The position numbers and the translations under genes are program-made. Below, one piece after another: positions 1 to 55,480 of a stretch of DNA of 64,000 nucleotides. The stretch lies in assembly GCA_017938765.1 (NCBI GenBank), contig JAGBAX010000028.1, forward strand, positions 190,490 to 254,489, written 5' to 3'. The notes beneath the pieces are model-generated. The model did no database searches, was not told the DNA's origin, and saw nothing but the letters and a program-made list of their open reading frames with translations. How positions within the stretch are numbered: the first letter of the stretch is position 1; every line of letters starts with the position of its first letter. This DNA comes from Alistipes sp. (GTDB taxonomy: Bacteria > Bacteroidota > Bacteroidia > Bacteroidales > Rikenellaceae).

Positions 1-362
1 ACTCTGTTCTGCAACTATGTAGTGCTTATGCGATTCTCACAAGATTTGGGGTTACCTCCCGCGTGTATCTCCGCACCACCACAAGTGGCGACTGCGGCAC
101 TTGGTCGGTGATGGCTTCGCCATTCAAATCCCCTATCCACTACAAAGAGAGTCAGCAAAAAGGTGTCAAACGACACCTTTTTTTTGTTTTAGAGCATCTA
201 TGTGCAAGTTCATTTGCAACAATAGATGCTCTAAACAAAGAAAGGGCGATAGCCCTCTTGCTGACTCTCTTTGTGAAGGCCTCGCGGCGAGCGAAGGGGA
301 TGGGCGTTACGGAGCGAGCAACAGCGAGCGCAGTAGCCAATCCCGCCCCCACAGCAAGGGGT

Positions 363-3845: not shown

Positions 3846-3855
3846 CAGCGCAAAT

Positions 3856-3901
3856 GTGGAGAGATTTGGACTGATTGCAACCACAATAAAAAATCGCTAA
3901 A
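3856..3901 (+). ncRNA. SAM-II riboswitch in the metK leader
   Basis: GTGG-aga-GATTTG-gact-GATTGCAACCAC-AATAAAA-AATCGCTAAA fits the SAM-II layout (P1 GTGG/CCAC, GAUUUG loop, UUGCA, 3' GCUAAA); lies just after the promoter and before metK. Confidence 0.8.
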
Positions 3902-3972
3902 CCAGCAATTCTTTATTTAGGCCCTCTCCACGTGTTATTTTGTAGAAGTTTACTTAAAAAATATAAAACACA

Positions 3973-8216: not shown

Positions 8217-8287
8217 TGGGCTATGGTGTAATGGTAACACGACAGATTCTGGTCCTGTCATTCTAGGTTCGAATCCTGGTAGCCCAA
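8217..8287 (+). tRNA. tRNA-Gln (CTG)
   Basis: TGGGCTA/TAGCCCA acceptor stem, anticodon loop TT-CTG-GT, GGTTCGAATCC T-arm. Confidence 0.97.
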
Positions 8288-8322
8288 CTAAAAAGGGGAG
8301 ATGAAACATCTCCCCTTTTTAG
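8288..8322 (+). terminator. Terminator after tRNA-Gln (possibly bidirectional)
   Basis: CTAAAAAGGGGAGATG-AAA-CATCTCCCCTTTTTAG perfect hairpin. Confidence 0.8.
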
Positions 8323-8335
8323 TTGGCATATGTTA

Positions 8336-8371
8336 CCCACCCCCTAAATCCCCCTCCTGTGAGGGGGACTT
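8336..8371. repeat. Short REP-like palindrome (family D, copy 1)
   Basis: CCCACCCCCTAAATCCCCCTC-CTGT-GAGGGGGACTT; same layout as the reverse complement of 15493-15528. Confidence 0.5.
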
Positions 8372-15626: not shown

Positions 15627-16931
15627 ATGAGTTTAGTTGCAATCGTTGGTCGCCCGAATGTGGGCAAAAGTACACTGTTCAACCGTCTTGTGGGTCAGCG
15701 TCAGGCTATTGTAGACGCTACTGCAGGCACTACGCGAGACCGTCACTACGGCAAGACAGACTGGTCTGGTCGTGAGTTTTCGGTTATTGACACTGGCGGT
15801 TATACGGTCAACAGTGACGATATTTTTGAGGACGAGATTCGCCGTCAGGTGCTACTGGCTATTGAAGAGGCGGATGTTATTCTGTTCCTTGTAGAGGTAG
15901 GCACTGGTGTGACAGACCTTGATATGATGATGGCGGAGATTCTGCGCCGTGCAAAGAAGCGCGTGATTCTTGTCTGCAACAAGGTGGACAACTACGAGCT
16001 TATCTACAACTCGCACGAGTTCTACACCCTCGGCCTTGGCGACCCATTCTGCATCAGCTCTATGTCGGGCAGTGGCACGGGCGAGCTGATGGACCAGATT
16101 CTGAAGCTACTGCCAGAGGATTGCACCGCCGAGGAGCTTGAGGACCTGCCACGCATCACTATTGTGGGTCGTCCAAATGTCGGCAAGTCCTCTATGACCA
16201 ACGCCCTGCTGGGTCAGGAGCGCAACATTGTAACAAATATCGCTGGTACTACGCGCGACTCTATCCACACCCGCTATAACAAGTACGGCATGGACTTCTA
16301 CCTCGTTGATACCGCAGGTATGCGCAAGAAGGGCAAGAGTATGGAGGACCTTGAGTTCTACTCTGTTATGCGCTCTATCCGCGCCATTGAGGCGTCAGAT
16401 GTCTGCATACTTATGCTTGACGCACAGCAGGGCATTGAGTCTCAAGACCTAAATATCCACAACCTCATTGTCCGCAACCGCAAGGGCTGTGTTATTGTTG
16501 TCAATAAGTGGGACCTTGTAGAGAAGGAGAACAACACGATGAAGGAGTGGAAGGAGTTCCTTGAGAAGAAGCTCGCTCCATTTAGCGATATTCCGATTAT
16601 CTTCACTTCGGCACTGCACAAGCAGCGCATCCTTGAGGTGCTGCAGACAGCTATCCGTGTCTGCAACTCTCGCTCACGAAGAATACCTACCTCGGAGCTG
16701 AACGACTTTATACTTCCAATCATTGAGAACACCCCACCACCAACAGTCAAGGGTAAGTATATCCGTATAAAGTACGCTATGCAGCTGCCAACACCTACTC
16801 CGCAGTTTGCCTTCTTCTGCAACCTGCCACAGTATATCCGCGAGAACTACCGCCGCTTCCTTGAGAACCATATCCGCGAGCAGTACGACTTCTCCGGCGT
16901 ACCTATCCAGATATACTTCCGCCAGAAGTAG
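15627..16931 (+). CDS. der: Ribosome biogenesis GTPase Der
   Basis: Two GRPNVGKS G-domains, GTTRD, DTGG/DTAG, KH-like tail. Confidence 0.98.
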
Positions 16932-17137
16932 CTACGCAGAACTGCCCGCTTTTTGAAAAAAGCAGGGCATGCAAAAACTTTCGGCGAAACCTTGTTTCGC
17001 TTATCTCTGATGCGGATTTAGGATAGCCTTATGGCTATTACGATAAAAAATAGAGCCATTCACTTTCAAGCAAGCTTGAGTGAGGCTCTATTTTCATCGT
17101 ACCATCTGCGATGGATAACCCAAATCCGAATAAACGC
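16931..17137. repeat. Structured intergenic element family A, copy 1
   Basis: Shares CTGATGCGGATTTAGG, TCAAGCnAGCTTGA and AAATCCGAATAAAC blocks with 44165-44419 (inverted) and 55085-55326. Confidence 0.9.
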
Positions 17138-18186
17138 TACCCCACAATAATTCCACCACCGAGGATTGTGTTGTCGCGGTAGAAGGCGGCTGCTTGACCT
17201 GCAGCTACGGCTGTAAGTGGTTCAAAAAGAGCAACTTGCAGGGTGTTATCTGGTAGCAGTGTTACTCGGCAGCGATTTGCTTGTTTGCGGTAGCGGATTT
17301 TTACGATAACATCGTCTCTGTCAAGTAGTTGTGCAGGATTTGTGATATTCCAATCCTTGAGGCGAAACTCTGTACGCTCTAATGACTTAAGGTCTCCCAG
17401 CACGACACGATTCTCTGCTGGAACAATCTTTTTTACGAAGGTCGCTTTGTTAAGGTCAATGCCCAGACCGCGCCTCTGACCGATAGTGTAGAATGGATAA
17501 CCCTCGTGCCAAGCGATAAACTCCCCATTTTCATCCACAAACTCCCCCCTCTGAATAGCCTCCGTTGGGACATTGTCGCTAAGAAATGTGCGGTAGTCCA
17601 TCGGGCAGAAGCAGACGCCGAGGCTATCTTTTTTCTGCGCAGCCTTCATAAATCCGCGCTCCAATGCAATTTCGCGCACGCGCTGCTTTGTCAGCGCACC
17701 CATAGGCAGGAGCATCCGCTCTAATATATCTTGTGGCAGCCCCCACAGAAAGAAAGATTGGTCTTTATCTGGGTCTGCACCCGCCGTAATGTGCCAATGG
17801 TTATCTATAAACTCCTTTTGCACATAGTGCCCCGTAGCGATATGATAAATTCCCCGCTCGTCGGCCAACTGGCGAAGAAGAGGCCACTTTAAGTAGTTGT
17901 TACACAGCGTACAAGGCACTGGCGTGTGGCCGTCCATATACTCGCGGATGAAGTAGCCTATAATAGTCGTCTTAAAGAGTTCTCTCTGGTCAGAGACTAT
18001 ATGCTCAATGCCAAGACGAGAGCATAGCTCCCGCGCATCATCAAGATACTCCGTAGAGCCGTCTGTCTCATAGAAGCGGAAAGTCACGCCCGTAACTTCG
18101 TATCCAGCATCCTGCAACAGCAGCGCTGCCACAGAGCTGTCCGTGCCACCACTCATCCCCAATAAAACTCTCCGACTCGGTTTCAT
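17137..18186 (-). CDS. mnmA: tRNA 2-thiouridylase MnmA
   Basis: [39 protein letters not shown]; start MKPSRR at 18186, TATCTTTG promoter at 18191-18198. Confidence 0.96.
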
Positions 18187-18214
18187 ACCACAAAGATAGT
18201 CACAAAATAGAAAA

Positions 18215-18249
18215 AGCCAATGGCTAATGGCCAACAGCAAATAGCAAAT
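18215..18249. repeat. Heptamer repeat arm
   Basis: agccaat ggctaat ggccaac agcaaat agcaaat. Confidence 0.65.
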
Positions 18250-18274
18250 CTGATTTTAGGTGAGTTCCTCACCA

Positions 18275-18403
18275 TAAATTTCATTTTAAGTCGGAAGTTA
18301 CAACGCTCGGCAAAAAATCCCACCGATGGATAGTACTAAAACGTACAGCCATTGGTGGGACTTTTTTGTTAGCGGAAGTAAATTCCACTTAAAATGAAAT
18401 TTA
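18275..18403. repeat. 129-bp palindromic element family B, copy 1
   Basis: Perfect 17-bp terminal inverted repeat TAAATTTCATTTTAAGT/ACTTAAAATGAAATTTA; core GGATAGTAC-N6-GTACAGCC; right end overlaps the mdh stop codon. Confidence 0.85.
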
Positions 18404-37946: not shown

Positions 37947-37959
37947 AGTATCATTCCCA

Positions 37960-38447
37960 AGCGATGTGAATTGCTTGCAATGGTTGGCGTAAAGAGTGGC
38001 GAGGGAGCTTGCTCACTAAAGCCAATCTTTGCGACAAGCGTAGTCGCGCTGCGACTCACATCGCGCCACACCATACCGCCGAGAACACAATACACAACAA
38101 AAAAAGGATAGCATAACTGCTACCCTCTATCTTGTGCCCAGAATAGGACTCGAAGGTCAAGCGACAGCTTGAGCTCGCGCGGATACCTTTAGCGCAGGGC
38201 AAAGCCCGAGCAATAATATCTTATATCCGCGCAACCTACGCCCTGTGAGCAGGGCTATTCTGAACGCTGAGCGATGTGAATTGCTTGCAATGGTTGGCGT
38301 AAAGAGTGGCGAGGGAGCTTGCTCACTAAAGCCAATCTTTGCGACAAGCGTAGTCGCGCTGCGACTCACATCGCGCCACACACAAACACAAAAAAAAGAG
38401 AGACTCAACCGTCTCTCCATAACCTTGTGCCCAGAATAGGACTCGAA
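37960..38447. repeat. tRNA-Leu-linked repeat: 112-bp identical duplication plus 24-bp duplicated tRNA 3' end
   Basis: 37960-38071 = 38270-38381; CTTGTGCCCAGAATAGGACTCGAA at 38131-38154 and 38424-38447. Confidence 0.9.
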
Positions 38448-38508
38448 CCTACACGTCTCTCAACACTCGCACCTGAAACGAGCGCGTCTACCATTTCGCC
38501 ATCTGGGC
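38428..38508 (-). tRNA. tRNA-Leu (CAG)
   Basis: GCCCAGATGGCGAAATGGTAGACGCG-CTCGT-TTCAGGT-GCGAG, long variable arm, GGTTCGAGTCC. Confidence 0.96.
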
Positions 38509-44057: not shown

Positions 44058-44419
44058 TTGGCTATTAGCCATTGGCCATTAGCCGTTGGCTTGCCTTCGG
44101 CAACCCGACCCTGCTCCGCCTCGGCAATTCAAACAAGTTTGATTGCTCTCGGCTTAATCGCAGCGTTGGCCTTACAGAGGTACAGACTTCGTCTGTTTGC
44201 GTTTATTCGGATTTAGGTTGCTGCCGCAAGGCAGTGAAAGAGAAAATAGAGTCTAACACTCAAGCTCGCTTGAAGGTGGAAAGACTCTATTTTTTATTTC
44301 AATAACTCGTAGAGTTACCCTAAATCCGCATCAGCACGGAAGAAAAACGAAGTTTTTCGCGAAAGTCTTTTGGGTCACTTTTCTTCAGAAAAGGGACGGT
44401 ACACGCTTTCTGCGTAGCC
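44058..44419. repeat. Composite: heptamer arm (44058-44092), about 70-bp hairpin module, family A copy 2 (44165-44419, inverted)
   Basis: Reverse complement aligns to 55085-55350 with compensatory changes. Confidence 0.9.
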
Positions 44420-55084: not shown

Positions 55085-55350
55085 CGCGTACTGCCCGCTT
55101 TTTGAAAAAAGCAGGGCGTGCAAAAACTTTTGGCGAAACTTTGTTTCGCTTCCGCGCTGATGCGGATTTAGGGTAACTCTGCGAGTTATTGAAATAAAAA
55201 ATATCCACCTTTGGTTTCAAGCGAGCTTGACCTTTGGTGGATATTTTCTCTTTCACTGCCTTGCGGCAGCAACCTAAATCCGAATAAACACTTTCAGACG
55301 AAGTCTGTACCTATGAAAGGCCAACGGCTAATGGCCAACGGCTAACAGCC
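55085..55350. repeat. Family A copy 3 followed by heptamer arm (55319-55350)
   Basis: Alignment with 16931-17137 and 44165-44419. Confidence 0.9.
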
Positions 55351-55351
55351 C

Positions 55352-55480
55352 ATTTTGTCGTCAGAGTGGTGCATTTACCACGCTCAATAAAAAAATGCCT
55401 GCGCAGGATAGTACCGAGTAGTACAGCCCAGCAGGCATTTTTTATTAGCGGCAGGAAATGTGCCACTATCACGACAAAAT
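55352..55480. repeat. 129-bp palindromic element family B, copy 2
   Basis: TIR ATTTTGTCGT/ACGACAAAAT; core GGATAGTAC-N6-GTACAGCC; ends 3 bp from the fba stop. Confidence 0.85.

Follow-up and report, generated by a model that had tools for sequence, protein, structure and literature searches.

We lean toward the view that Family A, a branched repeat with three copies in a 64-kb window of Alistipes DNA (the whole stretch analyzed), is a TLR-derived, nonautonomous single-stranded-DNA element: its four-armed core would come from a tRNA-linked repeat and would fold and move as single-stranded DNA on the lagging-strand template. Judged from distribution, descent likely ran from TLR to Family A; this direction, the enzyme, and the host benefit are points that we infer.

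Copies in the window and across the source genome

The coordinates, stems, and arm variants that the initial annotation gave for the three copies were all present in the sequence. The copies and their modules are as follows.

16931 to 17137, minus strand (the folding strand): Family A copy 1, whole, from the der stop (ending at 16931) to the mnmA stop (17137)
Modules of copy 1: short end motif, 16931 to 16939; M1 hairpin, 16943 to 16969; CAAAAACTTT, 16972 to 16981; M2 hairpin, 16984 to 17000; four-way junction, 17013 to 17128
17013 to 17128, minus strand: four-way-junction core of copy 1, with the long-arm tip at 17066 to 17079 and a two-base bulge on the 3′ side of the tip (folding strand)
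44165 to 44419, plus strand (the folding strand): Family A copy 2, inverted; M4 hairpin, 44182 to 44196; junction, 44208 to 44328; M2, 44342 to 44358; M1, 44374 to 44397; end motif, 44410 to 44418
55085 to 55326, minus strand (the folding strand): Family A copy 3; M1, 55092 to 55118; M2, 55133 to 55149; junction, 55163 to 55282; M4, 55295 to 55307

The flanking gene pairs, identified by Pfam as der/mnmA, exbD/DUF3467, and sppA/fba, are all convergent. Copy 2 is separated from the DUF3467 stop by 10 nt and from exbD by 168 nt. Copy 3 starts 11 nt past the sppA stop; heptamer repeats and a further hairpin family fill the space between it and the fba stop. The window also holds a SAM-II riboswitch at 3850 to 3910 (Rfam, gathering level).

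The count of three copies stood for the window but not for the genome: BLAST and iterated nhmmer searches found 39 loci in the 2.1-Mb source genome (G000), 30 of them full length and the others partial or of a simpler subfamily. Full copies follow the order end motif, M1 hairpin, CAAAAACTTT, M2 hairpin, four-way junction, and variable tail. Placement always between convergent genes likewise held within the window and not genome-wide, where our simple gene caller classed 26 of 36 loci as convergent, 10 as tandem, and none as divergent, with 3 more at contig ends. Convergent gaps make up 174 of 1597 gaps overall and 64 of 332 among gaps longer than 200 nt, and the convergent enrichment of Family A has a P value of about 1e-11. 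The M1 end lies ≤40 nt from a co-directional stop codon in 22 of the 30 full copies. By Pfam, the 68 flanking open reading frames (ORFs) are unrelated and mostly housekeeping.

A DNA search gave matches in 5 of 41 genomes, all of the genus, and Family A is also expanded in related Alistipes/Rikenellaceae genomes. The exact closing-stem pattern occurs at at least 110 loci, and the 80 titles among the matches listed are all Alistipes or Rikenellaceae MAGs. Neither the closing-stem pattern nor a tRNA-adjacent palindrome matched viral contigs, where the tip and tail patterns matched unrelated sequence only; phage and plasmid collections gave no match. The 31-bp M1 end motif alone was found, exact, in metagenome contigs of 35 to 67% GC (L337-L461, L265-L268), often without the junction. 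There it sometimes forms the inverted ends of small cloverleaf elements, and the neighbors share no gene. No description of Family A was found in the literature, including PMC2864571, although a prior listing is possible in the supplements of PMC5737381 and in two files of PMC8040213.

Repeats account for about 41 kb of the 288 kb of G000 intergenic DNA; several repeat families are interleaved there, Family A among them. A second abundant family of long hairpins, with ends TTTTGTCGT...ACGACAAAA and a GTAC-n-GTAC tip, is found in the window at 55354 to 55480 and 18260 to 18403; its copies lie right behind stop codons, and four relatives carry it in place of Family A at the der site. A third family, "tail1" (GCGATTAAGCCGAGAGC..., window 44110 to 44165), has a similar CAAG/CAAA tip and at least 20 copies and is arranged in tandem in L090.

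Fold, loops, and strand

Each window core (~125 nt) consists of a closing stem and three arms (short, long, and second short) that meet in a four-way junction. Folded as DNA, these cores reached z-scores between −8.1 and −9.2, and none of 200 shuffles folded as well. With folding far beyond that of shuffles and three arms in 142 of 144 distinct cores, the four-way junction first proposed from the three copies was borne out. So was their covariation, which we examined on 37 genome cores against shuffles and slid controls: 95.1% of cells were paired, 19 of 36 pairs had changes on both sides, none of 500 shuffles scored as high, and slid controls were 34 to 49% paired. Because the copies are related, the shuffle result is not a probability. 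Their kinship, and the fact that both sides of a palindromic arm can change in one event, mean that a kept fold is what the data show, not many independent selections. In a MAFFT alignment of 50 diverse cores the long arm came out misaligned, and that alignment does not enter the pair counts.

The two-base bulge, the topology, and the loop classes are constant across genera with little stem sequence in common. The tip that had been called invariant varies, with loops of CTTG (72), CTCG (31), TTTA (25), and CGTG (5) among the 142 three-arm folds; on the folding strand these are two-base YNNR tips of the long arm. On the same strand, the first (5′) arm ends in C-GNA-G in 104 of 142 folds, with all four bases at N (GAA 36, GCA 27, GTA 23, GGA 18), and in C-GNAA-G in 20 of 142; the M2 hairpin has C-GNA-G in 97 of 123. 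The one-strand bias of C-GNA-G-type loops reported from the window also holds in this larger set of cores. As also reported, the copy 1 mismatch becomes G-T on the minus strand, and G-T pairs number 163 on the folding strand versus 59 on the other. Energy was lower on the folding strand in 33 of 37 copies folded as DNA and in 30 of 37 folded as RNA. In DNA, GNA triloops and two-base loops of these kinds are stable, as GNRA and CUUG loops are in RNA; the latter also occur in Family A. The fold most likely acts as single-stranded DNA. Rfam gave no gathering-level match on Family A or its relatives, in line with the initial view that this is not a named family.

Among the 32 copies with clear GC skew (7 with weak skew were set aside), the folding strand is the G-rich strand in 26; among convergent copies, the count is 18 of 21. 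The G-rich strand marks leading-strand sequence, and if that applies here, the folding strand is the lagging-strand template. The ribosomal-protein operon agrees with the skew convention, and gene-strand fractions agree in only 4 of 8 contigs, all draft. Judged from GC skew in draft contigs, under this partly validated convention, the folding strand would be the lagging-strand template. The lagging-strand template is the strand used by IS608-type elements, and a like bias has been reported for single-stranded-DNA transposons (PMC5027513). Four other repeat families in G000 showed no orientation bias; in a fifth, the neighboring tail1 repeat that is often attached to Family A, and in the M4 hairpin, the DNA-type loops are those of the opposite strand (17 versus 4).

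It is improbable, in our assessment, that Family A is instead a host-selected RNA module, that is, a 3′-end stabilizer, a terminator that acts in both directions, or a small RNA descended from a TLR, like RrA/B/F of E. coli. Such a role would suit the convergent placement (26 of 36 loci, none divergent), the stop codons close to M1 in 22 of 30 full copies, and the A and T runs that flank the long arm. According to excerpts of PMC8144298, transcripts of three E. coli TLRs bind Hfq and CsrA, and contigs of two RNA runs cover the copy 1 region, with strand and level not readable from them. Against an RNA role, the polarity of the element is independent of the direction of transcription, its sites differ between close relatives, and a simple terminator scan returned no sites at copies 1 and 3. 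The loops argue against it as well, since the C-GNA-G triloops that dominate accept any N, a signature of DNA stability rather than of RNA.

tRNA-linked relatives and a proposed origin

A covariance model, R1, was built from the G000 copies of Family A only. In the window, its next three matches after Family A all fell in tRNA-linked arrays. These three units belong to the tRNA-linked repeats, the nearest known relative of Family A, which the initial annotation had missed.

123 to 345, plus strand: tRNA-Glu-linked relative (R1 E value, 5e-4; z-score, −11.8), with the tRNA-Glu gene just upstream of the window
Parts of the tRNA-Glu-linked relative: imperfect copy of the tRNA-Glu 3′ end, about 123 to 142; four-way junction of the same design, 148 to 268; then a junction hairpin ending in AATCCC
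38267 to 38378, plus strand (folding strand antisense to the tRNA): tRNA-Leu-linked unit 1 (R1 E value, 0.0014)
37957 to 38068, plus strand: tRNA-Leu-linked unit 2 (R1 E value, 0.005)
38134 to 38154, minus strand: between units 1 and 2, a 21-bp direct repeat that matches the tRNA-Leu 3′ end exactly
38427 to 38508, minus strand: tRNA-Leu(CAG) gene, anchor of both units

At 8217 to 8370 of the window, a terminator and a CCCCCTAAATCCCCC-type palindrome come after a tRNA-Gln; this palindrome is found again behind several tRNAs, as well as behind simple copies of Family A.

R1 matched 16 of 120 other genomes of the bacterial family. In 9 of these the match lies behind a complete tRNA gene (Ser, Pro, Gln, or Thr) and in 2 behind a tRNA 3′ fragment; the rest comprise 1 single copy behind a stop codon, 1 independent expansion (G077), 2 M1-like ends, and 1 plain palindrome. 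Scores of the tRNA-linked units were modest (E values of 1e-10 to 5e-3), and the plain perfect palindrome (L166), at an E value of 1e-4, is probably a false match. No match was obtained in 150 other Bacteroidales genomes, with 22 candidates scored per genome. Of 400 other Bacteroidales genomes, 2, from two other families, contain an 18-base tip pattern, and in each it belongs to the same junction directly behind tRNA-Met. A generic search for the long arm returned 37 intergenic matches, of which 19 are Family A, 13 lie ≤450 nt behind tRNAs, and 5 lie elsewhere.

Tail modules also connect the two groups. BLAST with the tail module of a tRNA-Val unit gave 9 matches (6 behind tRNAs, 2 directly behind copies of a Family A subfamily, and 1 alone); the tail module of four G000 tRNA-linked loci and the query locus sits 13 to 15 nt behind two Family A copies.

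A copy of the tRNA 3′ end terminates many of the tRNA-linked units. At six tRNA loci of G000, these repeats measure 17 to 27 bp. Three loci (L164, L171, and L172) have an exact 18-bp tRNA-end repeat that starts at the T-loop purine, with no identity upstream; the repeat sits in a conserved hairpin whose outer stem varies with the tRNA sequence. A tRNA-end repeat is also present on contig C29 of G000 (18 to 19 bp) and at L488 (18 bp, one mismatch). The junction hairpin of the tRNA-linked units folds back on itself and contains an AAC/GTT pair and a small internal loop. Units with the folding strand sense to the tRNA and units with it antisense both occur.

Five tyrosine recombinases are encoded in G000. 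Only two tRNA-linked units have an integrase nearby: an Arm-DNA-bind_5 remnant lies 150 nt behind the repeat at L172, and on contig C16 of G000 a unit lies ~1 kb upstream of an integrase. Pfam found none in the ten ORFs beside eight other tRNA-linked or single-copy loci. The C16 island (54000 to 66900, L206) carries type I restriction genes, the integrase, and a HipA-like gene; inside it is a four-way-junction unit with a tRNA-end-like remnant and no tRNA upstream.

Folded single strands of the attC or CTX type are inserted by tyrosine integrases. By our model, the ancestral unit would have been a minimal integrative element that carried the last 18 to 21 bases of a tRNA, presented the crossover point in the T loop inside a fold-back hairpin, and was inserted at tRNA ends by a tRNA-targeting tyrosine integrase borrowed in trans. 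In some lineages the core may then have lost its tRNA tail and joined a widespread hairpin end (M1 plus CAAAAACTTT). The detached core would have spread to mRNA 3′ ends through block exchange at short shared repeats, at the fork and with no target duplication. Copies would be retained chiefly between convergent genes, a position in which they would cause little harm and might stabilize or end transcripts.

A broader proposal, offered tentatively, is that TLRs form a class of integrative elements without genes that, as folded single-stranded DNA, commandeer tRNA-targeting integrases, and that Family A is a core that escaped its tRNA anchor and founded a REP-like family, at least twice in the Rikenellaceae and without a RAYT. 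If true, it would supply a mechanism for TLRs and one birth route for new REP/BIME families. A TLR-like design with a precise anatomy (four-way junction, junction hairpin, and a repeat starting at a fixed T-loop base) occurs across the Bacteroidales, and its detached form is found at tens of mRNA 3′ ends without a RAYT, so that TLR origin and the origin and spread of a REP-like family become testable in one system.

Spread, rival mechanisms, and known systems

Among 113 matches in relatives, 52 have both flanks in G000 coding DNA, 25 of them syntenic and 27 rearranged. Of these 25 syntenic sites, filled in the relatives, 17 are shared with G000 and 8 lack the element there. The 8 filled/unfilled comparisons revealed no target duplication, and neither a clean empty site nor an excised circle was seen; the three closest pairs with an unfilled site show replacement of whole blocks, with the left junction at GGCT(A), which is common to the heptamer repeats. 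The der stop of 16 genomes shows the element in the G000 orientation (3 genomes) or inverted (3), a remnant of it (1), a different hairpin family in its place (4), or no element (5); both orientation and subtype differ between genomes at this site. Between tpiA and queA the element is kept at 9 of 9 loci while the subtype changes. The 30 full copies represent 28 module haplotypes, and four-gamete violations separate M1, M2, core, and tail, with almost none inside the core. In G022 (4 of 4 inspected) and G077 (2 of 2), copies form inverted doublets whose M1 ends point outward and which enclose no long cargo.

The mnmA gene (window 17137 to 18400) is inverted as a single gene: the order is der>mnmA><mdh in G300 and G304 and der><mnmA<mdh here, and the der><mnmA arrangement is also found in G296 and G297 (der and mnmA only). 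Family A copy 1 lies at one breakpoint and heptamer repeats at the other. Together with the 27 of 52 sites that are not syntenic, this inversion indicates that repeats mark rearrangement breakpoints in a common gut genus.

The initial annotation suggested an HUH- or RAYT-like mobilizer, a guess that our searches left unsupported. A Y1_Tnp domain was present in 2 of 51 genome entries (three duplicates included) and in none of 15 distinct carrier genomes, which are incomplete MAGs (G000, 87%); TnpB and Y2 were each absent from 5 of 5 genomes. The initial annotation had proposed looking for copies that flank a Y1/HUH gene, and none flank the three Y1 loci of the bacterial family. We regard it as unlikely that Family A is a REP/REPIN-type substrate of an HUH (Y1/RAYT-like) transposase, with the enzyme lost, unassembled, or too divergent for Pfam. 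For it speak the REP-like placement at 3′ ends (PMC3733652, in part), the inverted doublets in G022 and G077, the bulged hairpin tip, the lagging-template bias, the atypical flanking structures described in an excerpt of PMC6006769 for Bacteroidetes RAYT subclass 2.6, and the tRNA repeats that start without upstream identity, as homology-free strand transfer would allow. Against it stand the enzyme searches and the position of GTAG or CGTC, which on the folding strand occurs only 3′ of the M1 hairpin and never as a 5′ foot.

Searches for other mobilizers were also negative. DUF559 and Rpn/PDDEXK_2 were absent where tested (G000 or carriers), and GIY-YIG there was UvrC only. No mobile gene was common to the 68 flanking ORFs (Pfam), to the ORFs around copies in relatives, or to the ORFs around 125 metagenome M1 loci (clustering). 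Three candidates were rejected: the two reverse transcriptase (RT) genes of G000 and a four-helix-bundle protein, neither of which is codistributed with the element, and small GIY-YIG genes, which are flanked by repeats of their own and not by Family A. The four-helix-bundle (PF05635) gene (G000 contig C26, 80104 to 80415; L045) has on both sides GCTAATG-type heptamer repeats, which are abundant in intergenic DNA. One RT, of 402 amino acids with a YSDD motif (L209, 1166 to 2517; G000 C26), has a structured 140-nt leader and a close homologue in only one other of the 51 genome entries. The small (~95-amino-acid) GIY-YIG genes of the Rikenellaceae (L467-L473, L476, L477, L484, and L485) lie, in 11 of 11 cases, between inverted TGTC/CGTC-type REP-like hairpins. 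By analogy with the arrangement known for RAYT genes, their product is a candidate mobilizer of CGTC REPs; no description of this pairing was found in the literature.

We judge quite unlikely a purely mechanical origin of the covariation, in which template switching during replication copies arm onto arm and a self-renewing quasi-palindrome is spread by host recombination with no dedicated enzyme. Near-perfect long arms at L159, L162, and L374, distal strands that are complements of the local tRNA trailer at L486 and L488, block replacement at short shared repeats with no target duplication, and the negative mobilizer searches are all consistent with it. The fixed topology, loop classes, and two-base bulge across genera with little stem sequence in common argue otherwise, as does an 18-bp tRNA repeat that starts at the same T-loop position in different tRNAs. 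Spread through RNA by an RT, possibly with the four-helix-bundle (Avd-like) protein, is highly improbable: G000 has two RT genes, and its four-helix-bundle gene is flanked by heptamer repeats that also bound Family A blocks, but no RT adjoins any copy, close homologues of the 402-amino-acid RT occur in G000 and G302 only among 51 genome entries, and the four-helix-bundle family is below the cutoff in eight carriers (G003, G022, G077, G294, G295, G298, G299, and G304).

The TLR-derived element that we favor can be set against known systems. E. coli TLRs have been known since 1978; PMC8144298 (in excerpt) reports no function for them and gives as their hallmark an 18- to 19-bp copy of the upstream tRNA end. 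Those of E. coli K-12, including the tyrT/RtT units (PMC8144298, same excerpt; RF00391), resemble our tRNA-linked relatives in lying directly behind tRNAs, singly or in tandem, with an 18- to 21-bp copy of the tRNA 3′ end. Family A copies, in contrast, adjoin protein genes at mRNA 3′ ends in tens of copies, with no tRNA and no tRNA-end repeat at their ends. A four-way junction with DNA-type loops is not mentioned for E. coli TLRs in the excerpted text of PMC8144298. Rfam RtT (RF00391) exceeded the cutoff in 0 of 5 genomes; the best score (E value, 0.925; 17.4 bits versus 45) was behind a tRNA-Met of G000.

As described in parts of PMC3733652 and PMC6006769, REP, BIME, and REPIN sequences are, like Family A, multicopy, intergenic, and near the 3′ ends of convergent or tandem genes; they share with it mosaic modules, inverted doublets in some genomes (G022 and G077 for Family A), and lineage-specific expansion. 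A REP, by the same partial accounts, is a 20- to 40-bp palindrome with a 5′ GTAG/CGTC foot, whereas Family A has a branched core of 115 to 135 nt and such tetranucleotides only 3′ of M1; repeats flank RAYT genes, whereas the 15 Family A carriers (incomplete MAGs) yielded no RAYT. Family A resembles the ends of IS200/IS605 elements and their nonautonomous derivatives (PMC5027513, in part) in its strand-specific bulged hairpins and its bias to the presumptive lagging-strand template; it differs in that no TnpA or TnpB was found and in having no fixed tetranucleotide target and no precise ends. MITEs have terminal inverted repeats and target-site duplications, whereas single copies of Family A have unlike ends and the 8 comparisons showed block replacement.

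Integron attC sites and CTX-type folded attP sites are, like Family A, sequence-poor and structure-rich single-stranded folds (for attC, see also PMC5737381, in part). The likeness extends to the tRNA-linked units, whose junction sits in the fold-back hairpin described above (AAC/GTT pair, small internal loop); the Family A core differs from attC in being branched and in having no R boxes (R″/R′) and no gene cassettes or array. The Clostridiales-1 motif (RF01699) is also multistem, intergenic, of unknown function, and from gut bacteria, and gave one weak partial match on L171 (E value, 0.016; 29 bits versus 48). HMP2_4205, a palindromic Bacteroidetes candidate given for Porphyromonas and Prevotella in an excerpt of PMC8040213, is likewise multistem and intergenic, a likeness drawn from its description only. 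As a whole, Family A falls outside the TLRs, REPs, MITEs, IS200/IS605 derivatives, and attC sites, yet it works like a REP/BIME mosaic with TLR-type relatives.
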